DNA of 64,000 bases. It comes from Planctomycetota bacterium. GTDB lineage: Bacteria; Planctomycetota; SZUA-567; H5-PLA8. The stretch spans positions 96,001-160,000 of the forward strand of contig JBBRPR010000006.1 of assembly GCA_038227875.1 (NCBI GenBank), in the 5' to 3' direction. The position numbers and the translations under genes are program-made. The notes under the pieces are model-generated. The model saw only the letters and a program-made list of their open reading frames with translations. It had not been told where the DNA came from and made no database searches. Positions 2,042 to 24,132 of this stretch are shown here, piece by piece (the first letter of the stretch is position 1; every line of letters starts with the position of its first letter).

Positions 2042-2905
2042 ATGGCTAACGGCTTCACCATCCCCGAGCGCGTGATCAAGGACGCGTGCACGCGCGTGCT
2101 GCGCGTCGACACCGTCTGGCGCTACATTATCGCCGGCGGAAAAAACCACGGCACCAAGCCCGACAAGCACGTCAACACCACCATGCCGTCGCTGGGCATC
2201 AACGTGGTGTTGCGAGGACGCGGCAAGTACATCGACGCCGCCGGCCGCGAGTACGATCTTTATCCCGGCATTCTCTTTCATCGCTTCCCGAACAAAATTC
2301 ACACCACGTGGTTCGATCCCGCCAGCGAGTACACGGAATTCTTCGTCTGCATCGACTCCAACACCGCCGCGCAGCTCGGGCAACTCGGGCTGGTCTCCAC
2401 CACCGCGCCGCTGGTCGATCTGGGCGTGAGCGAAGTGATCACCGACGAATACCTGCGCCTGCTCGACCGCATGAAACTGACCGAAAGCGAGCTGCCCACG
2501 TCAGTGATGCTGATGGACCTGCTGAATTTCGTCAACGGACTCTACGAACGCGCGCGCCGCAACCGGGCGCTGGGCTACTGGGACAAGATCATCGCTGACG
2601 CGCGCTTGCTGCTGGAACGCGACCTGGGTTCGCGCGTGAGCATGGAAGCCGTGGCCGACAAGCTCGGCGTGTCGTACACGGCCTTCCGCAAGAAGTTCCG
2701 CGAAACCGTCGGCATCTCACCGGGCGACTACCGCATTCACTGCCGCTTGGAATCCGCGCAGACCCTGCTGATGAACCGCTCGATCAAGCAAGTCGCAACG
2801 ACGCTGGGCTATTGCGATCAGTTCACGTTTTCGAATCAGTTCAAGAGCTACGTCGGCGTTTCGCCGAGGGCGTATCAGCAGCGGCTGAAAGTGACGGGAC
2901 GGTAA
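2042..2905 (+). CDS. AraC-family transcriptional regulator, divergent from PhyH gene
   Basis: C-terminal double HTH: VADKLGVSYTAFRKKF...GISP; IKQVATTLGYCDQFTFSNQFK..VGVSP. Confidence 0.92.
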   Translation: MANGFTIPERVIKDACTRVLRVDTVWRYIIAGGKNHGTKPDKHVNTTMPSLGINVVLRGRGKYIDAAGREYDLYPGILFHRFPNKIHTTWFDPASEYTEFFVCIDSNTAAQLGQLGLVSTTAPLVDLGVSEVITDEYLRLLDRMKLTESELPTSVMLMDLLNFVNGLYERARRNRALGYWDKIIADARLLLERDLGSRVSMEAVADKLGVSYTAFRKKFRETVGISPGDYRIHCRLESAQTLLMNRSIKQVATTLGYCDQFTFSNQFKSYVGVSPRAYQQRLKVTGR

Positions 2906-2947: not shown

Positions 2948-3310
2948 TTATCCGCGTACAATCGTCACTCCGCCCATGAATTGCATTTCATGCAGAGTCA
3001 GCATCATTATCGCCAAGGCATGAACTTCTAGAATACCAGATGGCCCCGTACCGATTACCGGCATCGCCACCGACCAGAAACTTTCGCGCTCGACAACCGC
3101 AATAATGCTTCGAATGGATTCTTCGATACGCGCGGCGCTACACGTCCCATCTGTATTGAGATCCGCGACGCCAATCTTTCCGCCAAGATTGCCCGCCGCT
3201 TTGGATAAAAGCAGCGTCTGACCTGACTGCACAGATCCGTCGTTAATCCTGATCACGAACGCATCAGCAGACTGGTCCTGAATCGTTCCCGCGACGACTT
3301 CAACCCCCAT
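2948..3310 (-). CDS. Short macro-domain-like protein
   Basis: VEVVAGTIQDQSADAFV and SVAMPVIGTG resemble macro-domain ends; central NAAN/GGGV motif absent. Confidence 0.5.
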   Translation of the reverse strand: MGVEVVAGTIQDQSADAFVIRINDGSVQSGQTLLLSKAAGNLGGKIGVADLNTDGTCSAARIEESIRSIIAVVERESFWSVAMPVIGTGPSGILEVHALAIMMLTLHEMQFMGGVTIVRG

Positions 3311-3383
3311 CGCGGTCGCCTCCAGCCGGATCAGTGTCGCTCTCGCACCCCCAAGAGCCAAGAACTAACAGCCACGAGCCACG

Positions 3384-4103
3384 TCACGCCACCGTTCCCA
3401 GCTTGATCTTCAAATCCTTCCGCTCGACGATCTTCGCCACCGTGCCTTCGGAGATCCAGATCACGCGGTCGGACGCGGCCAGCATCTTGTGATCGTGCGT
3501 CGCGGTGATCACCGTCACGCCGTTTTCGCGCGAAAGCTTCGAGAGGATCGCGATGATGTCTTCGCCGGTCTTCAAATCCAGGTTGCCCGTCGGTTCGTCG
3601 GCCAGAATGATGCTCGGATCGTTGGCCAGAGCGCGGGCGATGGCCACGCGCTGCTGCTGTCCGCCGGAGAGTTCTCCGGGTTTGTGCGATGAACGTTCGC
3701 CCAATCCCACGGACGCTAGCAGTTTCTGCGCTTTGATTTCGGCCTGATCCTTGGGCACGCCGCTGAACATGATCGGCATCGAGACATTCTGCAATGCGGT
3801 GAGCGCCGGCATCAGGTTGAAGCTCTGGAAGACGTACCCGATCCACGCACAGCGCACGAACGCGCGCTTGCGGGAGGAGAGTTCGGGAATGTTGATGTTA
3901 TCGATTTCGACGCGTCCTTCCGACGGCGTGTCGAGCCCGCCGATCATGTTGAAGAGCGTCGACTTTCCCGAACCGGACGGCCCCATGATCGAAACGTACT
4001 CGCCGCGAAAGATCTCCAGGTCCACGCCCTTCAGCGCGTACACGGTTTCGCCGCGCATCTTGTAGGACTTCTTCAATCCGACGCAGCGAATCAATGTTTC
4101 CAT
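3384..4103 (-). CDS. LolD/MacB-type ABC ATP-binding protein
   Basis: [39 protein letters not shown]. Confidence 0.95.
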
Positions 4104-4169
4104 AACAACTACTCCGACCCGACTGTTGACTTTTAACCACGCCGCCAATTGGCGGCATGGTACCTCCGT

Positions 4170-6245
4170 TCAAAACGCGGTCTGCAACACCGCCTTGCTC
4201 AAGAACACCAATCCGACGGAGAAAATCGAAACTAACCCAGCCCCGCAAAAATATCCCGCGCACAGCACCGGCGCGATCTGGAACCATTTCGCGCCGAATC
4301 GCTTCTGGAAATAATACCGCCCCAGCAGCGCGCCGAAAATCTGCGGGATGATGTTGTGCGGCAGCGACTGATTCAAGCCCTGCACCACGCCGTACATCAG
4401 GAAAATCGGCGCGCCGAAATAGTTCAGCACCGAGTACACACCCACGGAAGCGACCGCGCCGATGGCGATCAGCGGCGGCTTCAGCGCTTCGTCGAACTGC
4501 GAGAACTCGCCCATCGTCGACGAGTAGACCACGCACTGATTTTTCGCCTGCAGTTCCCACATCTTCGACGCAAACGGATATGCCGCCGACGGGACGGGCG
4601 CCAGCGACCAGATCAGATTTGCGAAGAGGATCGAACTGACAATTACGATTGGGAACGTGATCACGTCGGCCTTCCAGATCGATTTGAACTTCGAACCGAC
4701 CAGTTCCGACTGCCGGTAGAAGACCGTCTGCAATCCGTAATTGCCCAATGGCAGTGGTACGAACCAGATGTTCAATCCGCGATAGCCGCTGAGAATGAAT
4801 CCAGCCTCGCGGATGTACGGAATATCGACGGCCTGGCCGACCATGCCTTCCAAACGCGCGGTGACGTAGCTGATCAGCGGCGTGTAGAGAAATCCGTAGA
4901 ACAACAGCACCACCATCACGCCCGTGTGCCACTTGATCAGCCAGCCGGAGACGCCGATGTAGATCAACGTCGTCACAATGTAGACGGCGATTACGATCCA
5001 GGCGGGGATGTGGCCGCGTTCGTTATAATAATCCTGATCCTTCTGCGGATCGCGCGCGCTCGCCGACTTGACTTGCGCTTTTCGGAAACTGCGCCAGATC
5101 GCGTAAAATCCGATCAACGCCAGGCCGATGGCGATGCCCGCTCCGAAAGAAAGGTAAAAGTCGATATTATTTTTAAACGAGGTGGCGATGGTATCGTCGC
5201 CGGCCTGCCACGAATGCAGCGTGCCGTTGTGCTGGAGAATTGGATTGAGAACAAACGTCATCACCATCCCAACGGCGGCGCCGACGACCGCAAAAAATGG
5301 CACCACCATGCCCACGATCACGTTGGCCAGATCGAATGATAATCCGGTCGCCACGGCGGGAAGGAACGTCTGCGTCTTGGTCGTCCAATCGACAAACGGA
5401 ATGGGAAATACCGCCAGGCTATCGTTCAGAAACGCCTGGCTGACGGCCGGGAGCGCAATGTAGATCAGCGCAAAGGCCATCCCCAGCGCGCCGCCGATGC
5501 TGAACGTCCGCCAGCGCCAGCGCGACGTGGTTTCCGTCGCCTCGTCGGCATCCTCCGCCAGCGCCACCACGCCCTGAGCGCCGATCGGCGCCATGGGAAA
5601 CGGCAGCTGTTCGATGTCGCTGGCGACGCGGAAAAGTCCGTAGCAGAGAATCGTGTTGTTCAAACGGCCGATCACGTTCTGAAAGATGATCATGCCGATC
5701 ACCGGCATCCATTCCCACATGAAAAACGAACGATGGCGCAGCACCGCCGGATCGTGCGGCGCGACCCAGGACGGAATCAAATCCGTGTACCCCAGGTTAT
5801 TCACCGCTTCGCTCTGCACGAAAAACTGATTCCAGATCAAGCCACCAAACGGCGTCGCGAGCAATCCGCCGGCGATGTAGAAGAAGACGAAAATCTCCGC
5901 CTTGCCCAGCGCCTTGTGCGCGCGCTTGGCAATTTCGATGAAGAGAATCACCGTCACCCACTGCGCCGCCGGGCCGATGCCGCTGCCGGCCAGCAGATTC
6001 ATGTACATCGCGCCCGGCACCATCAGCAGCGCCACGAACGCCGACCCGGCCAGCGAAATCCACGAGAACCCATCGACGAACGTCGACGGCGGCGTCATCA
6101 ACGAGCGGTAGCGTTCCAGTTCCGGATCGAGATTCGACGATGCCTTCGGCGCTTCGACGACCACCGCCGCGACGGTATCGTTCGGCGAGGCCGGTGGCGC
6201 GTCCGGCTTCTCGAAGTCGGGTCCTGGGGGAGGAGTGTCAGACAC
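4170..6245 (-). CDS. OPT/YSL-like polytopic membrane transporter
   Basis: 691 aa, many TM helices, DIEQLPFPMA motif resembling the OPT 'L.FP' motif. Confidence 0.65.
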   Translation of the reverse strand: MSDTPPPGPDFEKPDAPPASPNDTVAAVVVEAPKASSNLDPELERYRSLMTPPSTFVDGFSWISLAGSAFVALLMVPGAMYMNLLAGSGIGPAAQWVTVILFIEIAKRAHKALGKAEIFVFFYIAGGLLATPFGGLIWNQFFVQSEAVNNLGYTDLIPSWVAPHDPAVLRHRSFFMWEWMPVIGMIIFQNVIGRLNNTILCYGLFRVASDIEQLPFPMAPIGAQGVVALAEDADEATETTSRWRWRTFSIGGALGMAFALIYIALPAVSQAFLNDSLAVFPIPFVDWTTKTQTFLPAVATGLSFDLANVIVGMVVPFFAVVGAAVGMVMTFVLNPILQHNGTLHSWQAGDDTIATSFKNNIDFYLSFGAGIAIGLALIGFYAIWRSFRKAQVKSASARDPQKDQDYYNERGHIPAWIVIAVYIVTTLIYIGVSGWLIKWHTGVMVVLLFYGFLYTPLISYVTARLEGMVGQAVDIPYIREAGFILSGYRGLNIWFVPLPLGNYGLQTVFYRQSELVGSKFKSIWKADVITFPIVIVSSILFANLIWSLAPVPSAAYPFASKMWELQAKNQCVVYSSTMGEFSQFDEALKPPLIAIGAVASVGVYSVLNYFGAPIFLMYGVVQGLNQSLPHNIIPQIFGALLGRYYFQKRFGAKWFQIAPVLCAGYFCGAGLVSIFSVGLVFLSKAVLQTAF

Positions 6246-9200
6246 GTTGCGCGTCTCCTGCCGTCACCGGCGCTTTTCGCGTGCTGATTTGCGATTTGAT
6301 GGCCTCGTCGGTCTTCGCGCGGTAATTTTCCATCGCGTCATGATTCAGCGCGCGCCAGATCAGGAACTGCTTACGCAGATCGTTGATGAAAATGCGATTG
6401 AAGCGCTCCCAGTTCGCCGGACGGCCGGACAGGCGGTGGAATTCGATATTCACTTCCTGAATGCCCGGAATCGACGAGGGCACCGTGGAGAGCTTGAACG
6501 TCTGGCTCACGCCCAGGTCGAACGGCGCCAGCCACACTTTCGCGTGCAGGCCCAGCGTGCGCGAATCGCCAATCTTCAGGATCTCCGCATCCTGCGCCGA
6601 GAAGTGGCCGAGCGAAATGTCGTTGTGGCTGTCGAGATGTTCCTTCAGGAAGCTCACGATGCCCTTCATGTCGTAGCTCGACACCGTGAACGGGAAGACG
6701 ATGCTGTGAATATCCCCCTGCGGCTTGGGCAATTTCCACGAGCGGTTGACGCCGGGGTTCGCTGAACGCGAGGCCTTGATCGCTGGATAGATCGTCGAGA
6801 GCAGCACGGTGGCCATCACAATCAGAATCGTGATGATTGCCGTCGATGAGGAGTAATTCACGTTCGGCACCCGCACGATGCCATAGTGCGTGCTCAAGAA
6901 TGTCAGCACCGTCACCAAGGATTGCCCGAGCAGGTAACCTCCCAGCCCGCCCAGCACCGCGTAGATGAAGACTTCAGCGAAGAACAACGTTGCGACATGC
7001 GGCGGCGCCAGGCCCAGCGCGCTGAACGTAAAGATTTCCTTCTCACGTTCGACCACCGAACCCAGCATCGTGCTGAAGACAATGAGCCCGCCCAGCAGCA
7101 GCGGCACAATCAAATCGCCGATGCCCGTGAAACTCACGCGGTCGGTGAACTGGAAGCGGTGGACGCCGTCCGGCAATCCCGCGTAGACGTAATTGTCACT
7201 CAGCCGCGCGACTTTGCGTGCGATCGCTTCGGCGGCTTCGGGCTTTTTGGGCATGACGATGATCGCGCGCGGCCACGCTTTCATTTTTTCCATGTTCTTG
7301 TCGGAGACAAACGCGACCTGCGCAGGACTGATCGACGTCAGCGAACCCGGATCGATGTTCTGCAGGATGGCGCGCAGCACGTCTTCGCTCATGTTCTGAT
7401 CGTTGCTCTGCGACATCTCCATCGCCGCCTGAAAATCCAGCGGCAGGTATGGTGATCCGTCGAGTTGCCGGATTTTCTCGACCTTCAGATTGTCGAACGT
7501 GCCCGCAACTGTGTAGGGATAGCCCCAGAGCGTCACTGAATCGCCACGCTTGAGTTTCAGTTTCTCCAGCATGTCTTCGCTCAGGAAAATGCCATCGCCT
7601 TCGAGCATCTTCTTGGTATCGCCTTCCAGCGCGTCGAAGATCTCCGGCGTCACACGGTGATCGAACTCCGAGACGGCCATGACGCCATTAAGCATCATCG
7701 GCGAACGGCTGGTGCGCGTCATCACCGGCGCCTGCATGGGCTGAAACGGCCCGCCGGACATCGAGACGCGCGCGTAAACGTCGGCCTCTTCGGATAGCAA
7801 CGACTTCAGCGCGCTGACCTGATCTCGGTCGATCGGCGACCACGTGACGTTGTGGATCAGCATGTAGTTCTTGTTGTTCTGCTGACCCAGGTACGAATGG
7901 ATTACGTCCGACGTCGAACTGAAACTGGCGAAGCAGAGAATCGTGAACGTCAGCAGCACTACCGTGACGGCCGTCAGCGTCGTGCGCAGCGGCCGGCGGC
8001 GCATCGTCGAGATGCCCATCTGCACCGCCGCCAGCATCGTGCTCATGCGGCTGACTTCCGACGTGTGCACCGATCCCGCGAGTCCCTGCATCGTGCGGAT
8101 TTCGCTCTGGAACTTCTGCATCACGATCATGATCACAAAACCGCTCATCACGATGATCGTAAACGCCAGGAAAATGATCATCGGCGTCGCCGCGAGCTGG
8201 AAGGCGGGATGCACGGCGTAGAGCGCCAGGAACGTGATCAGAAAGAAGCCCGCAAAGCCGGCGATCTGGCGGTAGATGTTCGGCGAGCCGATCAGCAGGC
8301 GTTCCAGGCTGAAGGCGAAGGGGATCGTCAGAATCAGCAGGAAGATCACGGCGTGGATCACGTCGTCCATCGTCGCGATGATGGGATTGTAGATGCGATT
8401 GCCCGCAATCGCCGACGCTTCGGCGTGCGCGTATGCGCTGCCCCATTTGCCTGCGGCAGCCGCGTCCTTGGATTCGGCCAGTTGGTCTTCGCCAAAGCCG
8501 TGCATGCGTTCGATGGAATTGTCGTACAGCCCCGCGCGCCGCAGCCGCTTCAGGCGGCTTTCGTTCAGATTCCACAAATCGCCGGACGCCGTGAGCGCCG
8601 TCGATAGCAGCAGCGGCCGCACCAGACTACCGTACGCGGGATCGGCGTCGGGATCCTCCGGCGTCCACGAAACGCCCGTGCCCATCGGGTTGTCCGGCGA
8701 GCCTTTGATCAGCGGCAGCAGCGTCTTGCCGAACAGTTTGACGCTCTTGCCAAACGGCACGTAAAACGCCATCGTCGTGTCCACGGCGCGGATGTAATAA
8801 TGGGGGAAATCCGCATCGGTCTCCGCGTTCAGCAGCTTCCAGTCGCTCTCCTTGATGACGTTGCCCGTCAGCGTATCGCGGCAGAGCGTCAGCGCGGCGC
8901 CCTGGGCATGGAAGAGCTTCAGTTTGACCGGCGCATTGGCGAAATTGGCGAAGCAGACGCGGTTACCGCCCTCGTTGTGATTGACGATGTATGTGACGCG
9001 CCCCCGCGCATCGAATTTCGCCGCGTCGAAGGCCCATTCGTTGGGCACCACCGACGGCATGTCGAAGAAACCCAGTGAATCGGTGAACATGTACAGCGTC
9101 CGGTCGAAGCCGGGGATGTAATTGTATTCCGAAAAGTTCATCGCGCTCTTGCGCGCCGGCAGCGCCGCGACAATCACGCCCGCCGCCGGTTCGTCGGTGA

Positions 9201-11187
9201 TCGACGCGCCTTCCGTGCACATCACCACGTTGTTGCCGCTCAGCACGGAATCCTTGAGCGTGAACAGGTACTGCTTCGCGTTGATTGTCGCGCTGTTGCG
9301 CAATCCGAATTCTGGATCGCTGGCCAGCACGCGCAGCAGCGCCGCACCTTCACCGGCTTGCGCGCGCAGCACATCGATTTTCAAATTCGCGATCGTGTCG
9401 CTGGGGAGGCCTTCACGGCTGTAACCGTCGCCCATCGTCATCAGCGTGAAGCCAAAGTAGCCGTAGGCTTCCGCCACTTCACCGGCGTGCGTGAACGTCG
9501 TCGGCACCCAGAGGCGCGTGCTGTACAAACCGGAAACCGTGTGATCGAAGAACGTGTCGTGGGGCCAATCCGCGTTGGCGCGCAGTTTGGAAATGGCGTT
9601 GCGGATCGCGCCGAAGGCTTTGGCGTACGTGCCCGACGTCGATCCGTAATTGGCGGTGTCCAACGGGCAGTCACCGCCGACAATCAAACCCCAGTACGGC
9701 ATCGCGTCGCTGAAATCGAAGTTGAAATGCGCGACGATGCGCACGTACACCGGATCGGTCTTTCCCGGCACGGGCGGCTTCACCAGCAGATTGCCGAGCG
9801 CAATGTACTCGTCGTTGCGCGTTTCCTGCAGATCCAGCTCCGCGCGGCGGCGCGCCAGGCGTTCTTCCGTCAGCTGCCGCGTGGCCTTGTATGCGGTCAT
9901 GTCTTCGGCCGCCACGATCCGGGATTTCAGCGCGTAGCGAAGTTTATTCCAGGCGGACTTCTCATTGCGAAATTTATCCACACGCTCGGAGAGCGCCTTG
10001 AAAGGCTTGTTCTCCAGCTGATTCTTGGCGATCAATTTATTGAGCCGCCCCGTGGGTTCCACCAGGCGATCGGCCTGCCAGCTGGCGGTCAGATCCAACT
10101 CCCGGATCGCAGCGTCGTTCATGAACGCCAGCGGAAACGTCGCGGCATCGGCGGGCGGTTCCTGCCGGATCATGCCGAGCTTTTCGTCGAGCAGCGTTTT
10201 CTCGTCGGCGTACATCTTGCGACGTACAGTTTGAAGCGGCGCATCGTTGGCGCTTTCAATTCGCACCTTTTGAATCGCATAGTAGAGCCAGCGCGATCCG
10301 AGATGGTACTGACATTCGTCATCCAGAAATGCAAACAAGACCGTGCGCGTGGGTTTGGCGGCCTTAAAGATCCGCGCCGTTTCCAGCAGCGCCGCGCAGT
10401 TGGCCGCCGCGCGTGCTCCCTGGGCCAGCGCCGCCACGCTGCCGAGCGTGTCGAAATGGCAGGACAACACCAGCGCCTCTTCTTCCGCGCCGGCCGGCGT
10501 GGAGCCCGGAAGAACGGCGATCACGTTTGCCCCTTCGCCTTTCGTCCAGCGCGCCGACGACAGGATGGTGGCGCTCACGGTTCCGCGCGTCAGCAGTCCG
10601 GCCTTTTGCGCCACCTCGCGGCGTATAAAAAAGCGCGGCAGATCGGCGGTGATGTTCACCTGCTTGTCGCAGGCTTCCATGGCGAACGTGTGTTCGTCTT
10701 CAACATAAACCACGGCCGCCGCGCCCAGCGCGAACGCCTGCGAACCGCCCTCCAGCTGCGAGAAGTCGAGCAGCACGATCGCGCCGCGCGGATCCACGCC
10801 ATCGAATTCCGTCGCCGTGCCCGAGCCCGCGTAGATCACTTTTCCCGTCAGTCCAGCCGCGCTGGTGACCGCAGGCTGGAGCAGATTGGGATGCATCGGA
10901 AACAATTCGTAGTCAGCGCCGCCAACGGACAGCTTGCACTCCACCGATTCGCACTGCGGCACCGTGAAGTGCTGCAACTGGACGTCGTAACCCATCGACT
11001 TCAGTTCGTTCTGAATGTACTCGCGTGCCGCCGCGCCTTCCGTCGTGCCCGAAAGACGGTGTAGCGCCTTGCAGAGCGCCGCGACGTGGCGCTCGAAGCG
11101 TTCCTTGTCGAACACCTCGTCCTGCCCGGCAAACGCCAGTGCGGACGCGAACAGTGCGGTAAGCAGAACTGCACGGCGCAGCATCAT
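6238..11187 (-). CDS. Large fusion: signal peptide + PA domain + M28-like domain + MacB/FtsX permease
   Basis: ATG 11187 overlaps upstream stop (ATGA); PA-like GKVIYAGSG..RGAIVLL..GAAAVVY; M28-like NVIAVLPG..LSCHFD; MRRRPLRTTLT TM; FtsX motif VEREKEIFTFSALG..YPAIKASR. Confidence 0.85.
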   Translation of the reverse strand: MMLRRAVLLTALFASALAFAGQDEVFDKERFERHVAALCKALHRLSGTTEGAAAREYIQNELKSMGYDVQLQHFTVPQCESVECKLSVGGADYELFPMHPNLLQPAVTSAAGLTGKVIYAGSGTATEFDGVDPRGAIVLLDFSQLEGGSQAFALGAAAVVYVEDEHTFAMEACDKQVNITADLPRFFIRREVAQKAGLLTRGTVSATILSSARWTKGEGANVIAVLPGSTPAGAEEEALVLSCHFDTLGSVAALAQGARAAANCAALLETARIFKAAKPTRTVLFAFLDDECQYHLGSRWLYYAIQKVRIESANDAPLQTVRRKMYADEKTLLDEKLGMIRQEPPADAATFPLAFMNDAAIRELDLTASWQADRLVEPTGRLNKLIAKNQLENKPFKALSERVDKFRNEKSAWNKLRYALKSRIVAAEDMTAYKATRQLTEERLARRRAELDLQETRNDEYIALGNLLVKPPVPGKTDPVYVRIVAHFNFDFSDAMPYWGLIVGGDCPLDTANYGSTSGTYAKAFGAIRNAISKLRANADWPHDTFFDHTVSGLYSTRLWVPTTFTHAGEVAEAYGYFGFTLMTMGDGYSREGLPSDTIANLKIDVLRAQAGEGAALLRVLASDPEFGLRNSATINAKQYLFTLKDSVLSGNNVVMCTEGASITDEPAAGVIVAALPARKSAMNFSEYNYIPGFDRTLYMFTDSLGFFDMPSVVPNEWAFDAAKFDARGRVTYIVNHNEGGNRVCFANFANAPVKLKLFHAQGAALTLCRDTLTGNVIKESDWKLLNAETDADFPHYYIRAVDTTMAFYVPFGKSVKLFGKTLLPLIKGSPDNPMGTGVSWTPEDPDADPAYGSLVRPLLLSTALTASGDLWNLNESRLKRLRRAGLYDNSIERMHGFGEDQLAESKDAAAAGKWGSAYAHAEASAIAGNRIYNPIIATMDDVIHAVIFLLILTIPFAFSLERLLIGSPNIYRQIAGFAGFFLITFLALYAVHPAFQLAATPMIIFLAFTIIVMSGFVIMIVMQKFQSEIRTMQGLAGSVHTSEVSRMSTMLAAVQMGISTMRRRPLRTTLTAVTVVLLTFTILCFASFSSTSDVIHSYLGQQNNKNYMLIHNVTWSPIDRDQVSALKSLLSEEADVYARVSMSGGPFQPMQAPVMTRTSRSPMMLNGVMAVSEFDHRVTPEIFDALEGDTKKMLEGDGIFLSEDMLEKLKLKRGDSVTLWGYPYTVAGTFDNLKVEKIRQLDGSPYLPLDFQAAMEMSQSNDQNMSEDVLRAILQNIDPGSLTSISPAQVAFVSDKNMEKMKAWPRAIIVMPKKPEAAEAIARKVARLSDNYVYAGLPDGVHRFQFTDRVSFTGIGDLIVPLLLGGLIVFSTMLGSVVEREKEIFTFSALGLAPPHVATLFFAEVFIYAVLGGLGGYLLGQSLVTVLTFLSTHYGIVRVPNVNYSSSTAIITILIVMATVLLSTIYPAIKASRSANPGVNRSWKLPKPQGDIHSIVFPFTVSSYDMKGIVSFLKEHLDSHNDISLGHFSAQDAEILKIGDSRTLGLHAKVWLAPFDLGVSQTFKLSTVPSSIPGIQEVNIEFHRLSGRPANWERFNRIFINDLRKQFLIWRALNHDAMENYRAKTDEAIKSQISTRKAPVTAGDAQRV

Positions 11188-11999
11188 CCCCCCACCCCGC
11201 TCAGGTCGCCCAGTTCGCTCAGGCCGCCGACTTCCGCTTCGTGAATTTCGATCTCCGAACGCATCGCCGAGCGTTCGATCTTGCCGTCGCGGATCCAGAC
11301 CATGCGGTCGCACGCGGAGAGAAACTTGTGGTCGTGCGTGACGCAGATCACGCTCACGCGCTGTTCGTCGCGCAGCTTGCGCAGGATGCCCAGGATTTCC
11401 TTGCCCGTTTTCAGGTCGAGATTCGCTGTGGGCTCGTCGCACAGCAGCAGCGACGGCTGGTTGGCCATCGAGCGCGCGATTGCCACGCGCTGCTGCTGGC
11501 CGCCCGACATTTCCAGCGGCCGATGCGCCCAGCGCTCTTTCAAGCCGACCAGGTCGAGCAGCTTCATCCCGCGTTCGCGCCGCGCATCGGCGTCCAGTCC
11601 GGCGAAGGCCATCGGCGTGGTCACGTTTTCCAGCGCCGTCATCTGGCCGATCAGGTTGTACGTCTGAAAGATGTAGCCGATTTTGCGGCAGCGCAGGTAC
11701 GCCAGTTCGTGCGCGTCCAGCTGCGCCACGTCGACTTCGTCGATGAACACACGCCCGGACGTCGGCGAATCCAACCCGCCGATGATGTTAAAGAACGTCG
11801 ACTTTCCGGAGCCCGAGGGCCCCATGATGCAAATGAAGTCGCCACGGTGAATCACATAGTCAATACCCTGCAGCGCGTGCGTTTCGGTGTTGCCACGATA
11901 ATAGGTCTTGCGCAATTCGACCGTGCGCACGATCACCGGACGCTCGTTGGGATCGTCTTCGAGCTCCGCGTCTGCAGTTGTCGTCACGGCTGGATTCAT
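11184..11999 (-). CDS. Second LolD/MacB-type ABC ATP-binding protein
   Basis: [38 protein letters not shown]. Confidence 0.95.
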   Translation of the reverse strand: MNPAVTTTADAELEDDPNERPVIVRTVELRKTYYRGNTETHALQGIDYVIHRGDFICIMGPSGSGKSTFFNIIGGLDSPTSGRVFIDEVDVAQLDAHELAYLRCRKIGYIFQTYNLIGQMTALENVTTPMAFAGLDADARRERGMKLLDLVGLKERWAHRPLEMSGGQQQRVAIARSMANQPSLLLCDEPTANLDLKTGKEILGILRKLRDEQRVSVICVTHDHKFLSACDRMVWIRDGKIERSAMRSEIEIHEAEVGGLSELGDLSGVGG

Positions 12000-12026
12000 C
12001 GCACTCGTTTCCCGATTACCACTTCG

Positions 12027-14150
12027 CTACTCGACCCGCATCGCTTCCATCGGCGCCATGCGCGAGGCCACCCACGCCGGATACACGGCCGCGAGCATCG
12101 CCAGCAGCATTCCCGCCGCCGTCGACACGCCTGAATTCTTCAACACATCCACAAACGGAAAGTAACTCGAGGTATAAAACCCGTATGCCGCGCCGCAGCG
12201 CATCACGGCCAGGATCAATCCCAGGATCACGCCGAAGACCGCGCCGATCAGCCCCTGCAATCCCGATTCGATCAGGAAGATGGTCATGATGAACTCGTCG
12301 AGCGCGCCCAGGCACTTCATCGTCGCGATTTCGCGGAACCGTTCCGTTACGGCCATCAGCATCGCATTGGCGATACCCACGACGCAGACCAGAAACGAAA
12401 CGGCGATCAGCCAGAATGTTCGTTCACTGATGCCTTCCGTCTTTGTGCCGCGCGATTCCAACTGCGCTTGCATTTCGCGCACGCTCGTGCGCGCCTCTTC
12501 CATTTTTCCGACTTCCATGATCTCGTCTTCGGTCACCGGCAGCGGCGCCTTCACGCGGCTGGCGATGTGGCGCGCGTTGCTCTCGACGTAGCCGATCACC
12601 TGCGGGCTCTTCTCATCGGCGCTGCAGTAGAGCATGATCGCCGCCGGACTGTAGTCGGTGCTGATCCCCAGTTCGTCCCAGTGGGCCTTGTACTCTGGAT
12701 CTTTCAAGTAGGCGGCCAGTGCTTCGAATTTCGGATTGCCGGCGGCCGCCGGTTCCAGTGGGACTTTCTGCAGGCCGCGCTTCTGCACCCAGCGCAGATA
12801 ACTTTCCGCCAGCGATTTCACATCGTCTTCACTGCACGGCAGCGGGTTGGGAAGCGAAGCGGCCGTATCCAGCAGCCAGCGCCGCACCGCGCGGTTGTCG
12901 TTGAAGTACCAGAGCAGATTTTCGTTGCTGAACTCCTCGGGCAGGCCCAGCGTCTTCCATTTCTCCGTGAACACGGGATTGTCGATGTAGTTGATGAACT
13001 TTTTCTGTCGTTCCGATTTGTAAACTTCGCCGTCGGAAAGATGCGCGATCGAGCGCCCCGCATTCTGCACCAGCACGCGGTACGCGTTGGAAAAGGTCAG
13101 CAGTTCGTCGCGCGTCACGGGCAGCGGCGTGGTCGTGCGGGTCGCAACGACCTCCGCGTGGTCACGCACCCACTTCCGCACTTTTTCTTCCGTGATGTAG
13201 TGCTTGAGCAGTTCTTCGGGTTTGTAATCGCCGGGAATTTTCAGATCCGACCAATGGCTGCGAAATTCCGCGTCCGGCACGTAATCGCGGAACAACCGCA
13301 ACGCCGCGAGCTTGTGGCGGTCGGCGCAGACAGCCGTCAGTTCATCGGCCGTCACTTCAAATCCCGCCGACGTCAGCGCCGTCAGCAACTCCGCGCGCCT
13401 GGCCTGCGCGGCGGCCGGATCCTTCAGATTCGCCGCGGCATCCAAAGCCTTTTCCACGGGCATTCCGAGCCTGGCATCCACGGTATCCAGCGCCGCGATA
13501 ATGCTTTTTTCCAGCGCGGCCAACTGCGCGCGGTAGGCCGGCCAGTCGTTCTCAAATTTCCAGAGCGCCGGCAGTTCATGAGGAATGGTAACCGCCGCCA
13601 TTTCCGGCGATTTCAAATCCTGCGCAAACTCCCGCTGCGGAGTGGGATCGACGAGGTACTCGAAAATCGCGTCGCCATCGTTGCGCTTCACCAGCCGCCG
13701 CTTGCGCCCGAAGTCCAGCGCATCGAAAAATGCCGTGAATTCAATCTCGAGTTTCGCCGACTGGATCAGCTGCTCGAATTCCGCGGCGGAACCCGACCAG
13801 CGCGACAGTTCCTTCCAGCGCGGCTGCTCCGGCTTGAGCTTCGCCAATTCCTTGACCAGCGTCGAGCGCGGCGTGTTCCGCGCCAGGCGCTGCGCGAAAA
13901 TGTCCGCGACATAGAGGCGTTCGAATTCGCGCTGCACACCGCGCGCCACGGAATTCGAGATGATAGTCTCGGTCAGGATGTTCATCAAGAACGCCACGGC
14001 CAGCACGATCACCGAGAGCGTCACCGCCGAACGGAAGAAGCGGTGGCGGATGCTGCTGACGCAGAATTCGAAGCTGCGCCGAAACGACAGCTTCTCCTGG
14101 TCGCGCACGGCCTTCTTCACCGCGATTCCTTTTTCGGCCACCTGTTCCAC
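12027..14150 (-). CDS. FtsX/MacB-like permease with large helical extracytoplasmic domain
   Basis: N-terminal RHRFFRSAVT+TM; C-terminal GIANAMLMAVTERFREIATMKCLGA...YPAWVASRMAPMEAMR; start uncertain (GTG 14150/14141/14120). Confidence 0.88.
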   Translation of the reverse strand: MEQVAEKGIAVKKAVRDQEKLSFRRSFEFCVSSIRHRFFRSAVTLSVIVLAVAFLMNILTETIISNSVARGVQREFERLYVADIFAQRLARNTPRSTLVKELAKLKPEQPRWKELSRWSGSAAEFEQLIQSAKLEIEFTAFFDALDFGRKRRLVKRNDGDAIFEYLVDPTPQREFAQDLKSPEMAAVTIPHELPALWKFENDWPAYRAQLAALEKSIIAALDTVDARLGMPVEKALDAAANLKDPAAAQARRAELLTALTSAGFEVTADELTAVCADRHKLAALRLFRDYVPDAEFRSHWSDLKIPGDYKPEELLKHYITEEKVRKWVRDHAEVVATRTTTPLPVTRDELLTFSNAYRVLVQNAGRSIAHLSDGEVYKSERQKKFINYIDNPVFTEKWKTLGLPEEFSNENLLWYFNDNRAVRRWLLDTAASLPNPLPCSEDDVKSLAESYLRWVQKRGLQKVPLEPAAAGNPKFEALAAYLKDPEYKAHWDELGISTDYSPAAIMLYCSADEKSPQVIGYVESNARHIASRVKAPLPVTEDEIMEVGKMEEARTSVREMQAQLESRGTKTEGISERTFWLIAVSFLVCVVGIANAMLMAVTERFREIATMKCLGALDEFIMTIFLIESGLQGLIGAVFGVILGLILAVMRCGAAYGFYTSSYFPFVDVLKNSGVSTAAGMLLAMLAAVYPAWVASRMAPMEAMRVE

Positions 14151-14500
14151 TATTTCTTCCCCGGCAACACGGCGATGATTCCACGTTCGCTCAGCATCCG
14201 CATGAATTGCAACACCGCCGCACGCGATTCTTGAAAGCTGAGCTTGTGCTTTTCCATCATCTGCCGCACCACGTCTTCGACGCGGTGCCGCCCGTCGCAT
14301 TGCGACAACACCCACGCGCCCATTGCATCCAACTGCACGCGCCGCGCGCTGGAAAGCGGAAATACCCACGTCAGCGGCGCGCGCGCCCACCAGCGCTTCT
14401 TCATGGGAATCGTCACCAGCACGCCGCGCGAATTCTCTTCCAGCATCGCGGCGCGATTCTGGTGCGGAATCGCCTTCAGCATCTCGTCTTTGGCGCTCAT
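14150..14500 (-). CDS. PqqD-family protein (RiPP recognition element fold)
   Basis: 116 aa; VQLDAMGAWVLSQCDGRHRVEDVVRQM..HKL...VLQFMRMLSERGII fits the PqqD L-D/N-x-x-G..DG..V..F...L...G pattern; ATGA overlap with upstream gene. Confidence 0.85.
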   Translation of the reverse strand: MSAKDEMLKAIPHQNRAAMLEENSRGVLVTIPMKKRWWARAPLTWVFPLSSARRVQLDAMGAWVLSQCDGRHRVEDVVRQMMEKHKLSFQESRAAVLQFMRMLSERGIIAVLPGKK

Positions 14501-15381
14501 CGCGAATCCTTCCCGCAACACGAGACCACGTCTTCCAGTTGCGGCGCGCCGTCCACTGCGCCTTCCCACTCCGCCGCGTACAACCGCTCTTCGCTGTCGC
14601 AAACCCACACCGCCGCGCGGCTGGATCGCTTCACCCGTGTGAGCAACTGCAGCGGCGTCGGCCGCCCGGGCTTCAACCGCACGCTGACGCCCGTATGCCG
14701 GCCGATCTTCGTGCCGTCGCTGCCGAGCACCCGTTTGGGTTCATCCAGCGTGCTGGCAAACCAGTCTTTCAAACTCCGCCCCTTTAATTGCGCCTCCGGC
14801 AGTGCGAAGCGTTCGATGCGCACGCGCTGCTGCTTGCGCCCGCGCGTCGCGAACGACAGTGCCGCGCGGCCGGGAAACACATCGCACGATTGTACGTCGT
14901 ATTCACTGGGCAGCCGCACCGCGCAGCCAAACGCCCGCCAGCGCCACGCCGTGCCGGGTTTCTGGCAGTGGAAGCTTTCCAGGATTCGCCGCTGCAGCGC
15001 CAGGTCGCACTTCCGGTCGGTGGTGAACTGCGCCTGCAAAAGGTGGCCGGAGTCCGCAAAATAACCCACTGCGACAGTCAGGTCCTCTTCCGCGCCGCGC
15101 CATTCAATGCCCGACCAGCCCGCCGCACTTTTCAGCGTCTGCCATTTGCGCTGAAGCAGCGCGCCTTTCGGATCGCTCTTGCCCAGCTGCGCCGCGGCTT
15201 CCTCAAGAATCATCGTCGCGTTCACCGTCTTCGCCTCGACCCTGCCCCACAGCAGGCTCAAACGCCGCCCGCGCGGATCGGCCAGCGCGCATTCGCCGCG
15301 CTGGCGCTTCTTGCTGAAGCGCACGCACTCCCAGTCGTCGGGATGCTCAAACTGTATTCCCTGCCAGGCAAACGTCTGCAT
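14497..15381 (-). CDS. Hypothetical soluble protein, possibly two PsbP/DcrB-like repeats
   Basis: FAWQGIQFEHPDDWE and WRAFGCAVRLPSEYD; translationally coupled within operon. Confidence 0.7.
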   Translation of the reverse strand: MQTFAWQGIQFEHPDDWECVRFSKKRQRGECALADPRGRRLSLLWGRVEAKTVNATMILEEAAAQLGKSDPKGALLQRKWQTLKSAAGWSGIEWRGAEEDLTVAVGYFADSGHLLQAQFTTDRKCDLALQRRILESFHCQKPGTAWRWRAFGCAVRLPSEYDVQSCDVFPGRAALSFATRGRKQQRVRIERFALPEAQLKGRSLKDWFASTLDEPKRVLGSDGTKIGRHTGVSVRLKPGRPTPLQLLTRVKRSSRAAVWVCDSEERLYAAEWEGAVDGAPQLEDVVSCCGKDSR

Positions 15382-15394
15382 CGTGGACGAGCCT

Positions 15395-17695
15395 CTAGAA
15401 GGGGAAAATGCCATAGTAGCGGGGCTCCTGCCCCGTCCAGAAATACCACATCGGTCCGACCGCGATCCAGAACATCCCGCCGCACAAATCGCCGATGATC
15501 AGCCCGATGAACAGCGGCTTGAGATTCTGATACGTCCGCCCGCCCCCGATCCTCACCACCAGCATCTTGATCAGCCAGCCGAGCATGAATGACCAGAGAA
15601 AATTATTCGTCGCCCAGACGTTCCAGAACAAAAACGCGACCGGGTGCAGCGGCCACCACGTGTAGCGCAAGCGCAGCATCGACGTCAACGCCACCAGGCC
15701 AATGCCGATGATGAAGAATGTGACCAGGCTTGGGTTGGTGTCGCGCACGTCGCTCGACAATCGCCCCAGCCCCTCGACCGTCTTGGAGACCTCCAGATTT
15801 CCGGTGCGCTTGAGCTTCTGAATTTCACGCGAGACGTCTGACGCAAAACTCGTCGGCACCCAGCGGCCCATGTGCCCGTCGTTGGCCGCGCCGCGGCTGT
15901 AAATCACCCACAGCATCGCAATCCCCGCCACGAACAGCGCCGGCACCAGCATCGTCATCATCGCGCGGCTCAGCGGCGCGGGCGCCACCTGGTTACGCCC
16001 TCCCAGGCGCAGGCAGTTGATCACGTACGGCGCAAGGCACTCGCGATTGTCCTGCATCGTCGCCACGGTCACCAATTGCAGCAGGTACAGGCTGGCCGGG
16101 CCAATCGCCGCCGGACCCAGCGCCGCGACGATCAGGGCGCGTGCGAAAAATGGCGTACCCATGAAGGGAATGCCCGTCTCCGCCGACGCGCGCGCCAGCA
16201 CCAGGAACATTACGCCGATAATGAAGACCATCGCCGTCGCCAGCAGCCAGTCCAGCCCGAGATTGATCAGGAGCAGGATGAACAGGATGGTCGCCGCGAT
16301 AAACCAGCGGCACGCCGCGACGGCTGTGTCGTTGGGATCGGCGTCCGAACGCCAGAAAAGCGCGCGCTTCAAAATTGCCAGATAATAGTAGCGCCCCGTG
16401 TAGCAGATCACCGCCGCCATCGCGACGTATGAACCGAAGAGCGTGAAGTTCAGCTCGTCGCCGTTGATCGGCCGGCCGAACTGGTACATCGTCGCCGTCA
16501 GCACCGCCAGCAGCGGCAGCGACATCCCCAGGCTGAACGAAATCTCTTCGGGGAGAAAATACGCGAAAGCCACGATCGTCAGGTAGACCACGCCCGCGTA
16601 CATCATGTACGTGTTGCCTGCGGCGTGGTGGAAGTACTGAAACTTGCTCCACCAGATCCCGCTCAAGTTCCAACTCATCGGAATCTTGATCATGCGTTCG
16701 TCGTACACATGCCAGCCGTTGATTAAATGCAACATCAGCGTGCAGCCGAATGCGATCCAGAAAAGCCGGTTGTAGAACACATCGCTGAACGTCCGGCCGC
16801 GCTCATTTTTCATCAGCGAGTACGCGAACTCGGCAATCGGATACGACAACTGCTCGTTCTCCGACCACTGCCGGTGAACAATGCGGCACATGCTGATGAT
16901 AAAGATCATCATCACGATCAGAATTGGAAACCAGACCTTGGCCGGTCCCAGCCACGCCCACAGCGGCAGATCGGCCAGATGGTTGAGCACTCCATGCACG
17001 CCCTGCTTGAGCCACTCGGCAAACGGCGTATCGCGCAGCGGCGGCAGATCCTTGCCCTTGGTGAGTCCTTGCGCGTAGCCGTCGTAAACGCGGCCGTCGT
17101 CGTCGCGTTTGGGAAAGACATTCGGATTGATTTCCGAGACGTAGCGGTCCGGCTCGGCTTTCTGCCAATCGGCGACCGCCTTGCCATAATGTTGGGGCAT
17201 CACCAGCATCTGCGGCAAGTTGCGCATCAACCCCGAGGTCGGCAGCGAACCGGCGACCAGCGTCATCGACAGAATCACGACCAGCTCGCCGCGCGTGAAC
17301 ACCCGCAGCGGATTGACGCGCAACAGCGCCGAACACGCCGCGACCAGCGCGCAGATGGGAATGAAAATTTTGAGCGGTAAGGCGCTCTGCACCAGCCACG
17401 AAAATCCGCTGACCAGCGCGAGCGACGCTACCATCACCACGGGAATGAACCCGCTGCGCTGCGCGAATTTGCTCAAGAGTGGATTCACCACGACGAGCAT
17501 CACAAAGAACGCCGTGTAGACCGTCAACGGCAGATGGTTGCCGACGAAGAGATTCTGCTTGATGCCGTAATCGTTGTAGTAGGAAAATCCCGCGATGAAC
17601 AACCCCGCGCCCAACCCCAGCAGCATCGACCGCAGGGTGAACGAACGCGTATCTTCAGGGGTCTTAGTGGGGGGACCTGCCAGCACTCGAAGCAC
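15395..17695 (-). CDS. Polytopic membrane protein, DUF6785/DUF6784-like
   Basis: 766 aa multi-TM; NHLP, RQWSENEQLSYPIA, ARASAETG, WWPLHPVAF, KPLFIGLIIGD; start uncertain. Confidence 0.7.
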   Translation of the reverse strand: MLRVLAGPPTKTPEDTRSFTLRSMLLGLGAGLFIAGFSYYNDYGIKQNLFVGNHLPLTVYTAFFVMLVVVNPLLSKFAQRSGFIPVVMVASLALVSGFSWLVQSALPLKIFIPICALVAACSALLRVNPLRVFTRGELVVILSMTLVAGSLPTSGLMRNLPQMLVMPQHYGKAVADWQKAEPDRYVSEINPNVFPKRDDDGRVYDGYAQGLTKGKDLPPLRDTPFAEWLKQGVHGVLNHLADLPLWAWLGPAKVWFPILIVMMIFIISMCRIVHRQWSENEQLSYPIAEFAYSLMKNERGRTFSDVFYNRLFWIAFGCTLMLHLINGWHVYDERMIKIPMSWNLSGIWWSKFQYFHHAAGNTYMMYAGVVYLTIVAFAYFLPEEISFSLGMSLPLLAVLTATMYQFGRPINGDELNFTLFGSYVAMAAVICYTGRYYYLAILKRALFWRSDADPNDTAVAACRWFIAATILFILLLINLGLDWLLATAMVFIIGVMFLVLARASAETGIPFMGTPFFARALIVAALGPAAIGPASLYLLQLVTVATMQDNRECLAPYVINCLRLGGRNQVAPAPLSRAMMTMLVPALFVAGIAMLWVIYSRGAANDGHMGRWVPTSFASDVSREIQKLKRTGNLEVSKTVEGLGRLSSDVRDTNPSLVTFFIIGIGLVALTSMLRLRYTWWPLHPVAFLFWNVWATNNFLWSFMLGWLIKMLVVRIGGGRTYQNLKPLFIGLIIGDLCGGMFWIAVGPMWYFWTGQEPRYYGIFPF

Positions 17696-18038: not shown

Positions 18039-18869
18039 TCAGTATCGAGGAGCCGTCTTGCGGTACGTCGCCGGCGGCGTCCCCATCCGCGCTTTGAACA
18101 TCCGCGAAAAATGAAAGCGGTCCAGAAAGCCATGCCGATCCGCGATCTGCTCGATGCTGTCGGTCGAGAAAATCAGTTGCTGCGCCGCCTTGCTCACCCG
18201 CCGCTCCAGGATGAATTGCGCCGGCGTCTGCCCGATCTGCTGCCGAAAGAGCCGGATCAAGTGATCGCGGCTGACGTGACAGACGCGCCCCAACACCGTG
18301 TTGTCGATCGGCTCGGCCAGATGCGCTTCGATGTACTCCAGTGCCGCGGTCATCGTCTGCCTCCCGATCAAATGTTGAGCACAGCGCTCGCGCGCGTCTG
18401 AAGACAATTCGCGCAACACGCCGGCCAAAGCCACATAAATCATTGCCTTCGTGCGCAGCAGCACATCCAGCGTCACCGGTTCATCGGCGATCATGCGCGG
18501 CATCCACGCGGCCACGAGTTCATCCAACTGAGGATCGCGCCTGAGCTGGTACATCTGATTGAAGACCGCGCGAATCACCGTGGCCGGGAGGCTCATCAAC
18601 TCAAAATGAGCGTAGCAATGATCGATCGTCGGCACGCCGCGTCCTTCAAACTGCACCCACGCCGGGATGATGTAGACCCGGCCGGGCAGCATGTTCAGTT
18701 TCACCTCGCGCGTCCAGATCTGCGCGCCGCCACGGGAATTCACATACAGCCGCCAGAAGTTGTTGTTGAACGGGCCTTTCCAGCCCGGACCCAGTCGGAT
18801 GCAATGGGTCGTGAACAGCCGGATATGCAGACTTTCGAGCACCGTCACTTCCGAAAATGCTTGTGGCAT
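18039..18869 (-). CDS. AraC-family transcriptional regulator
   Basis: Cupin-like N-terminus; VSRDHLIRLFRQQIGQTP; IEQIADRHGFLDRFHFSRMFK..GTPP. Confidence 0.92.
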   Translation of the reverse strand: MPQAFSEVTVLESLHIRLFTTHCIRLGPGWKGPFNNNFWRLYVNSRGGAQIWTREVKLNMLPGRVYIIPAWVQFEGRGVPTIDHCYAHFELMSLPATVIRAVFNQMYQLRRDPQLDELVAAWMPRMIADEPVTLDVLLRTKAMIYVALAGVLRELSSDARERCAQHLIGRQTMTAALEYIEAHLAEPIDNTVLGRVCHVSRDHLIRLFRQQIGQTPAQFILERRVSKAAQQLIFSTDSIEQIADRHGFLDRFHFSRMFKARMGTPPATYRKTAPRY

Positions 18870-24050: not shown

Positions 24051-24132
24051 CACCGTTGTCCTCAATTGAAAACGCCATCAATCCCACCTTATATAGGTAG
24101 GACCCCGGTCAGAGTTATACTATATACAACGA

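Follow-up and report, generated by a model that had tools for sequence, protein, structure and literature searches.

Why should an ABC-type permease carry, on the periplasmic side, the fold of an aminopeptidase whose zinc site is incomplete? The question is raised by a gene in a stretch of 64,000 nucleotides from the genome of a Planctomycetota bacterium (assembly GCA_038227875.1, contig JBBRPR010000006.1, positions 96,001 to 160,000), which as a whole is called the window in the following and to which all coordinates refer. The gene (6238-11187, minus strand) encodes 1649 residues plus a stop and is the fifth of seven close-packed minus-strand genes; its product is referred to as the big protein. 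An original prediction, made from the letters of the window, had described a permease with a protease-associated (PA) domain and an apparently inactive M28 domain and had proposed a substrate receptor or gate rather than a peptidase. Our analysis leads to a similar answer, which we hold to be fairly probable: the big protein would be the large permease subunit of a type VII (MacB/FtsX-type) ATP-binding cassette (ABC) mechanotransducer, and its pseudo-aminopeptidase head a non-catalytic binding or gating module that is moved by ATP. The role of the head as receptor or gate is thereby taken over from the prediction as a likely, indirectly deduced function.

For the definition of the gene the start codon had to be chosen initially. 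The open frame extends in 5' direction to a GTG at 11442 (11442 to 6238, minus strand). The ATG at 11187 was preferred, because it shares four bases (ATGA) with the stop of the upstream ATPase gene, here named ABC1, because the relatives align from M1 and because a stretch resembling a signal peptide follows directly. Frame, ATG start and the alignment of the relatives all agree with the 1649-aa permease that had been predicted at this position. At the other end of the gene, the stop codon is overlapped by a GTG able to start the next gene, which encodes 691 aa. Antisense ORFs within the big gene, one of them with 568 aa (9358-11064, plus strand) and 61 in 40 related loci, look like shadow frames of a G+C-rich gene and give no sign of a real gene. 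The domain map and the neighbouring genes are listed in Table 1.

The structure of the head was predicted for residues 22-980, which were folded with 42 relatives (pLDDT 86.6, pTM 0.88). In a Foldseek search the top matches of this model were PA-bearing bacterial aminopeptidases (2ek8 with E 6e-19, BSAP and PaAP), followed by the transferrin receptor and glutamate carboxypeptidase II, and both the predicted structure and these matches bear out the M28 fold and support a PA insert. The model was aligned over 382-384 residues to the PA-bearing BSAP and over about 259 residues to M28 enzymes without a PA domain; at the level of the model, this longer alignment supports a PA insert in the head. 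The Pfam model Peptidase_M28 matched residues 221-302 with 47.1 bits (cut-off 21.3) and FtsX matched residues 1363-1474 with 41.3 bits (cut-off 25.5). PA (PF02225, 20.1 bits, cut-off 23.9) and MacB_PCD (19.7 bits, cut-off 27) stayed below their thresholds, and the predicted structures speak for the presence of both domains. As a fold, the head belongs to Peptidase M28 (PF04389), which matched 19 of 28 family members and exceeded the Pfam cut-off in 18 of them.

The M28 match is only half-length (profile positions 1-77 of 193), because a helical insertion splits the fold. In the model, one strand ends near the Glu-Cys pair at 291/292 and another at D491, with long helices in between, and the structural alignments to M28 enzymes cover model residues 1 to about 610; on the basis of this secondary structure and of the span of the alignments the helical stretch was placed inside the M28 fold. 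The original prediction had let helical and beta inserts follow the domain, which is correct for the beta-rich part. The helical part (about 311-479), however, interrupts the fold, which resumes at about 480-630. A search for free-standing heads detected none at E up to 0.001 among 8000 scored shorter candidate proteins. Shorter proteins do occur within the 150 best representatives and may be fragments at contig ends.

We then verified whether the catalytically crucial amino acids of M28 enzymes are retained. The motifs emphasized in the prediction could all be located: HFD is kept at 244-246, GARAAANC without the bridging Asp lies at 257-264 and LDDECQ at 288-293, where the usual EE pair reads EC and is thus not fully lost. 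In a HMMER alignment to the solved structures 6hc6 (YwaD) and 2ek8, the first ligand His corresponds to H244 and the Asp two residues further on to D246; A260 stands at the site of the bridging Asp, E291 at that of the general-base Glu and C292 at that of the ligand Glu. In the head model, H244, A260, E291/C292 and D491 are situated at strand ends or helix starts like the M28 ligands, and H567 just ahead of a helix. For the comparison within the family, a word-indexed search supplied a base set of 84 proteins (1533-2101 aa) that likewise combine M28 and FtsX, and these were aligned. An exhaustive HMMER search of cluster representatives (1570 matches at E up to 0.001, 163 at 1e-30) contributed 140 representatives to an extended set of 224 sequences. 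Among the 84 relatives, position 244 is His in three and Pro in 43, position 260 is Asp in 26, position 291 is Glu in 18 and Gln in 48, position 292 is Glu in none, position 491 is Asp in 21 and position 567 is His in 30.

All five ligands occur together in none of the 224 sequences: 48 sequences keep no ligand, 148 keep one, 25 keep two and three keep three, the big protein being one of the latter. In the nearest relative, which is 60% identical, both 244 and 491 are Asn, and the second nearest shows differences of its own; the ligand-like residues retained in the big protein are therefore under no visible selection. Of the elements of an active co-catalytic zinc enzyme, the general-base Glu is present (E291) and the set of five ligands is absent, owing to A260 and C292. 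The absence of a complete zinc site thus extends from the big protein to all relatives compared, as the conservation check proposed with the prediction reveals. The loss of ligands supports a head that is probably non-catalytic, at least with respect to classical M28 chemistry.

The closest relatives of the head are the bacterial PA-M28 aminopeptidases, i.e., B. subtilis BSAP/YwaD (6hc6/6hc7), the Aneurinibacillus AM-1 aminopeptidase (2ek8) and PaAP of P. aeruginosa. A profile of the family matched 2ek8 (E 1.6e-21) and YwaD (6.6e-21) first among the PDB chains, and PaAP thereafter. These aminopeptidases are soluble, secreted enzymes with five zinc ligands, whereas in the big protein two of the ligands are replaced and family-wide no set is conserved; moreover, the fold of the big protein is split by the insertion of about 170 residues and tethered to a membrane module. 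The same profile reached nicastrin as a remote match (E 4.2e-9), in which profile positions 203-363 were paired with residues 240-404 of the chain; transferrin receptor 1 followed with E 1.6e-6, and nicalin was marginal with E 0.047. The Pfam model Nicastrin (PF05450, cut-off 25 bits) did not match the big protein at E up to 0.01; it matched eight of 28 family members, all below the cut-off and with 24.7 bits at best. Nicastrin is absent among the 50 matches listed in either fold search, both lists being filled by closer M28 chains.

The term “nicastrin/nicalin-like” of the original prediction is consequently useful as an analogy of principle, namely a non-catalytic M28 fold within a membrane protein, and does not extend to membership in the nicastrin family. 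Like nicastrin, nicalin and the transferrin receptor, the big protein combines an M28 fold devoid of the zinc site with a membrane protein or complex. Unlike these eukaryotic proteins, it is fused to an ABC-type module, and neither a presenilin-type protease nor a translocon is in view. As far as sequence comparison can tell, the family branched off from PA-M28 aminopeptidases in bacteria and took a course like that of nicastrin, without being a member of the nicastrin family.

The membrane part was modeled separately (residues 600-1649; pLDDT 80.0, pTM 0.69), and Foldseek matched this model to MacB, the pneumococcal transporter 5xu1, LolCDE, HrtBA, YbbAP, YtrEF and BceAB. Hydropathy indicated seven transmembrane (TM) segments after the signal peptide, three extra ones and then the four of MacB type (1071-1089, 1360-1378, 1398-1416 and 1443-1461). 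The odd number of extra helices fits a periplasmic head combined with a cytoplasmic loop ahead of the first MacB-type helix (TM1). Pfam, hydropathy and model agree on the multi-TM bundle, the MacB-like periplasmic domain, the FtsX helices and the cytoplasmic tail which had been read from the sequence before. With FtsX above the Pfam cut-off, the layout of four TM helices, the periplasmic core domain of MacB type and an ATPase of LolD/MacB type, the big protein possesses the defining elements of type VII ABC permeases.

With the known type VII systems (MacAB-TolC, LolCDE, FtsEX-EnvC, YtrEF, HrtBA, YbbAP-TesA and BceAB) the big protein shares the four-helix MacB topology with the core domain between TM1 and TM2 as well as the separate ATPase of LolD/MacB type. 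It differs from them by its conserved cytoplasmic tail and by a periplasmic head at the N-terminus, which comprises about 920 residues and is carried by three extra TM helices. Further differences are the constant pairing with permeases of the OPT family and the lack of a gene for a membrane-fusion or outer-membrane partner. Mechanotransmission is given as the mode of action of type VII systems in the available part of a review on MacB (PMC5985334), the same part of which describes known layouts of the MacB fold, none of them like that of the big protein, and contains neither “M28” nor “aminopeptidase”.

The membrane module can be compared with two models of the PADLOC collection, which presumably derive from a published CARF census. 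PDLC01991 (CARF_m8--CARF_LolE_TM) matched the big protein with E 2.9e-59 over model positions 8-597 of 810, corresponding to the stalk, the three extra TM helices, the MacB module and about 40 residues past TM4, and ten of ten further relatives matched likewise. PDLC01990 (“...Beta-galactosidase_LolE_TM”), a model whose ectodomain of about 960 positions is of another kind, matches the big protein as well; both models are devoid of the M28 head. Positions of PDLC01991 beyond 624 stayed unmatched in the 11 proteins, in the source genome and in 201 genomes of the phylum (24 of which had a match at E up to 1e-30), and none of 14 control genomes matched at E up to 1e-30. The big protein hence corresponds to a part of PDLC01991 and not to the whole model, and proteins built on this membrane chassis also occur with different heads and, in place of the tail, with a different C-terminal domain. 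Going by the model names, this other domain may be a CARF nucleotide sensor. Since the cytoplasmic tail stands where PDLC01991 has about 200 positions of its own, it is possibly located in a regulatory slot. The other PADLOC matches were generic ATPase matches, from which no defence system could be deduced.

Conservation differs between the parts of the big protein. The mean frequency of the top residue amounts to 0.68-0.82 in the TM helices, the cytoplasmic loop and the tail, to 0.42-0.56 in the PA and M28 segments and to 0.30-0.36 in the helical insertion and the beta-rich domain, with the helical insertion being the least conserved (0.30). This pattern is compatible with a motor that is conserved and a working end that varies more. 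It is also an argument for a head that is a passive scaffold, i.e., a structural spacer or anchor which reaches, for instance, the cell wall or the outer membrane and has no specific ligand pocket. Such a role would be in line with the varying length of the head (relatives of 1533-2101 aa and versions of about 2600 aa) and with the PADLOC model, in which the membrane module occurs without an M28 head. Two observations speak against it, namely the near-invariant positions in the PA and M28 cores (14 of 87 and 14 of 110 columns conserved to at least 90%) and a conserved polar set beside the former active site, the latter being superfluous in a spacer; we regard the scaffold as quite improbable. 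As a side observation, the cytoplasmic tail is among the best-conserved parts of the protein, 42 of 155 columns being conserved to at least 90%.

For an insight into function we turned to the distribution of the family and its gene neighborhood. A scan of one genome per species yielded at least 645 candidate stretches, at least 604 of which encode a relative. The following counts rest on the best 80 of these at least 604 loci, and many loci are cut by contig ends inside the cassette. The 80 loci derive from Planctomycetota, Verrucomicrobiota, Kiritimatiellia, Lentisphaeria/Victivallales, Armatimonadota, Omnitrophota and Fibrobacterota; named relatives among the 84 proteins are from Kiritimatiellae, Lentisphaerae, Planctomycetaceae, Tepidisphaeraceae and the cultured Desulfovibrio mangrovi, so that the carriers are spread over several phyla and are mostly uncultured. 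In tblastn searches the gene for the 691-aa protein was present in 77 loci, that for the second FtsX-type permease in 54, the 305-aa gene in 41 and the DUF6785 gene in 29. An ATPase gene is situated directly upstream of the big gene in 47 loci and after the 691-aa gene in 59, with both arrangements in 39. De novo clustering of ORFs of at least 70 aa gave no further gene family in more than three of the 80 loci. The cassette is thus self-contained and its flanks are variable.

The source genome (9.3 Mb, 88% complete) contains a second cassette on another contig (C12, locus L081, about 3100-16950, minus strand). It encodes an ATPase, a paralog of the big protein with 1678 aa (P0090; identity of 27% by tblastn and 29% in the genome search), a 665-aa OPT-like protein, a 988-aa DUF6785-like protein, a short FtsX ORF of 227 aa, a further ATPase and a 302-aa protein. 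The same seven gene kinds therefore stand together in another order, which is good evidence for a joint function. In the paralog the site is fully degenerate, the motifs reading PLD, GAQAGAN and NAH. In two other genomes of the phylum (L083, 6194-13975, minus strand, and L084) the open frames of the big protein comprise about 2600-2780 aa, owing to extensions at the N-terminus, and the OPT-like protein is encoded by a gene of its own.

The two cassettes also allowed a first assignment of the ATPases. ABC1 scored 222.7 bits on the LolD and 209.9 bits on the MacB model, below the equivalog cut-off of both. In a tree of 52 ATPases, one clade (support 100/99) unites those encoded upstream of the big gene and another (97/85) those encoded after the OPT-like gene. 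Within the second cassette, the ATPase beside the paralog of the big protein joins the first clade and the one beside the short FtsX gene the second (each 95/82). We take this as a sign, drawn from one rearranged cassette with long branches, that ABC1 may serve the big protein and the ATPase encoded by the last gene (ABC2) the second FtsX protein.

The most constant neighbour, the 691-aa protein, is by sequence affiliation probably an OPT-superfamily protein: 31 of 43 orthologs match Pfam OPT (PF03169) at E up to 1, with 3e-11 as the best value, and in its nearest Atlas clusters 15-33% of the members carry OPT, a DUF6785 cluster following at 0.86. The window copy itself had no match to Pfam OPT, a profile of the orthologs found none among PDB sequences, and a direct BLASTP comparison between the 691-aa and the DUF6785 protein revealed no significant match. 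A complex prediction for the seven TM helices of the big protein (in two pieces) with the 691-aa protein gave scores of 0.19 and 0.10 versus a mark of 0.32.

Taken together, the data establish the fold, the topology, the loss of the ligands and the linkage of the genes, and from these the following mechanism can be inferred for an ATP-driven head. The signal peptide places the head of about 920 residues in the periplasm, where it is carried by the helical stalk, which runs into the three extra TM helices joined to the four-helix MacB module. ABC1, encoded just upstream, would act as the dedicated ATPase. Its binding and hydrolysis of ATP in the cytoplasm would move stalk and head, as in other type VII systems, and the head would bind, shield or pass on periplasmic material. 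For a path through the membrane, the most evident candidate is the OPT-family neighbour, possibly in contact with the big protein and in joint work with the second pair of ATPase and FtsX protein. A more far-reaching version, which we mention as a rather doubtful possibility, is a hybrid machine in which a MacB-type motor and the pseudo-aminopeptidase head catch periplasmic cargo and hand it over to an OPT-fold secondary permease, so that an ABC mechanotransducer is coupled to a proton-driven transporter. The cargo would perhaps be held via a free amino terminus or another polar group by a pocket of D246, R259, N263, H295, H487 and D494, and the cytoplasmic tail would occupy the slot filled by a sensor domain in related proteins.

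The LytM domain of EnvC is itself a degenerate metallopeptidase, and an adaptor comparable to EnvC has to be considered as well. In this case, the dead head and its coiled-coil-like insertion would hold a separate periplasmic enzyme and release it upon ATP, as FtsEX does with EnvC and the amidases, and the head would be a regulator outside of any transport path. The combination of a degenerate peptidase fold with long helices is compatible with this, and type VII systems commonly drive periplasmic partners (FtsEX-EnvC, PMC7668044; YbbAP-TesA, PMC12646458). However, neither a hydrolase nor a gene for a soluble periplasmic protein is recurrent, as no extra family exceeded three of the 80 loci, and the constant neighbours are polytopic OPT-family proteins, which point to a membrane path over a soluble client. 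An EnvC-like adaptor is therefore unlikely in our estimation.

Several observations weigh against the big protein as a mechanotransducer subunit with a non-catalytic head, some of them concerning the former active site. D491 and H567 were assigned as the presumptive last two ligand positions from their placement relative to strands and helices, and this assignment is weakened by the C-terminal half of the M28 fold, which had no match among PDB sequences. Among the 84 relatives it is the big protein that holds most metal-capable residues at the old ligand positions (H244, C292, D491 and H567, besides E291 and D246), and it may conceivably still bind one metal. D246 is invariant in all 84 relatives, as the only such position among the sites compared. 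Moreover, D246, R259, N263, C264, D289, H295, H487 and D494 are each kept in 22-27 of 25-27 sequences in two subgroups, in which only 14-29% of the core columns reach the same conservation; the subgroups were defined partly by the residues at ligand positions, so that only the other columns count as evidence. This polar set adjoins the old ligands and could be a ligand pocket, a rebuilt metal site or support for the fold, and it could also form a new catalytic or metal site instead of a binding site. A fusion of the big protein with an OPT part was not found among longer proteins with the 691-aa query, which is weak evidence, and none of 177 sequences extends by more than 63 residues past the C-terminal motif; the 2101-aa relative P0063 likewise contains no OPT part. 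Finally, matches at E up to 1e-30 were present in 27 of the 151 genomes sampled from the window's phylum (23 of 140 of good quality), often in several copies. The cassette is accessory and does not represent a core envelope function, although this patchiness says little about its role.

As a rival explanation, the head could be a cryptic enzyme whose rebuilt site (e.g., D246, C264, D289, H295, H487 and D494, either metal-bound or metal-free) would act on a substrate that is imported or belongs to the envelope, while the ABC module would only regulate access. The conserved polar residues and the ligand-like residues of the big protein enumerated above speak in favor of such an enzyme, whereas the family conserves no canonical ligand set. 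The trio of glutaminyl-cyclase type at 260/292/567 reads A, C and H here, with Glu at 292 in none of the 84 relatives; furthermore, the spatial clustering of the polar set is presumed and its subgroups depend partly on ligand-position residues. We therefore assign only a small probability to a cryptic enzyme and retain the non-catalytic head as the favoured explanation.

The type VII ABC systems studied so far are a handful of cases concerned with drug efflux, lipoprotein release, cell division, haem and bacitracin handling and lipid hydrolysis. A literature search on DUF6785/DUF6784, on FtsX with M28 or PA, on mechanotransmission by type VII ABC systems and on CARF with LolE found no paper on the family of the big protein, many papers being outside its coverage. 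Within the literature searched, no description was found of the layout with seven TM helices, a tethered pseudo-peptidase head, a conserved tail and constant OPT-family pairing. With at least 604 loci among species-level genomes the family is not rare. Identification of the cargo would give a role to a large block of annotations as “FtsX-like permease” and DUF6785, and the family would illustrate for bacteria how a peptidase fold can be put to non-catalytic use within a membrane machine.

Table 1. Domains of the big protein and genes of the seven-gene cassette with their positions in the window.
Feature	Position	Strand	Basis
Start codon and Sec signal-peptide-like N-terminus, residues 1-21, MMLRRAVLLTALFASALAFAG	11125..11187	-	sequence, hydropathy
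M28 fold, N-terminal part, residues 22-113	10849..11124	-	model; structural alignments begin at model residue 1-2
PA domain within the M28 fold, residues about 114-200	10588..10848	-	Pfam PA below cut-off at 114-194; alignment to BSAP
M28 fold, middle part with degenerate motifs (HFD, GARAAANC, EC for EE)	10258..10587	-	Pfam, HMMER alignment
Helical insertion inside the M28 fold, about 170 residues (about 311-479)	9751..10257	-	model; helices of up to 42 residues
M28 fold, C-terminal part, residues about 480-630, including D491 and H567	9298..9750	-	model, structural alignments
Beta-rich periplasmic domain, residues about 631-860	8608..9297	-	models
Helical stalk, residues about 861-940, continuing into the first TM helix	8368..8607	-	models
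Three extra family-specific TM helices, 943-961, 971-989 and 1004-1022	8119..8367	-	hydropathy, model, conservation 0.73
Conserved cytoplasmic loop ahead of MacB-type TM1, residues 1024-1068	7984..8118	-	model, conservation
MacB/FtsX-type module: TM1 1071-1089, periplasmic core domain about 1091-1358, TM2-TM4 1360-1461	6763..7983	-	
Conserved cytoplasmic C-terminal domain, residues 1476-1649, alpha+beta	6241..6762	-	
Gene 1: polytopic membrane protein with DUF6785 and DUF6784, 766 aa	15395..17695	-	
Gene 2: 305-aa protein, no known family, no TM segment	14497..15414	-	
Gene 3: second FtsX-type permease, up to 787 aa, periplasmic domain of about 520 aa	12027..14390	-	
Gene 4: ABC1, LolD/MacB-type ATPase, 271 aa, translationally coupled to the big gene	11184..11999	-	
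Gene 5: big protein, 1649 aa	6238..11187	-	
Gene 6: polytopic membrane protein, probably of the OPT superfamily, 691 aa, GTG start overlapping the stop of the big gene	4170..6245	-	
Gene 7: ABC2, second LolD/MacB-type ATPase, 254 aa, last conserved gene of the cassette	3384..4148	-	

A 137-aa ORF after ABC2 (2948-3361, minus strand) has a weak match to the Macro domain (E 0.0018, below the cut-off) and is not a recurrent neighbour. The cassette is flanked by genes encoding AraC-family regulators on both sides (2042-2905, plus strand, and 18039-18869, minus strand). Farther out, ORFs encoding a 1264-aa protein similar to CBM9/acetyl-xylan esterases (20271-24065), a GFO/IDH/MocA oxidoreductase, a PhyH-type dioxygenase and an aldo/keto reductase were detected. 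None of these flanking genes, regulators or carbohydrate-related, is recurrent in the related loci. Within the cassette, the second FtsX protein contains three repeats of about 90 residues (residues about 376-643, with W..L.IP..Y ... PLPV motifs), which correspond to no Pfam family and reached z-scores of 7.0-19.4 versus shuffled sequences in pairwise local alignments.

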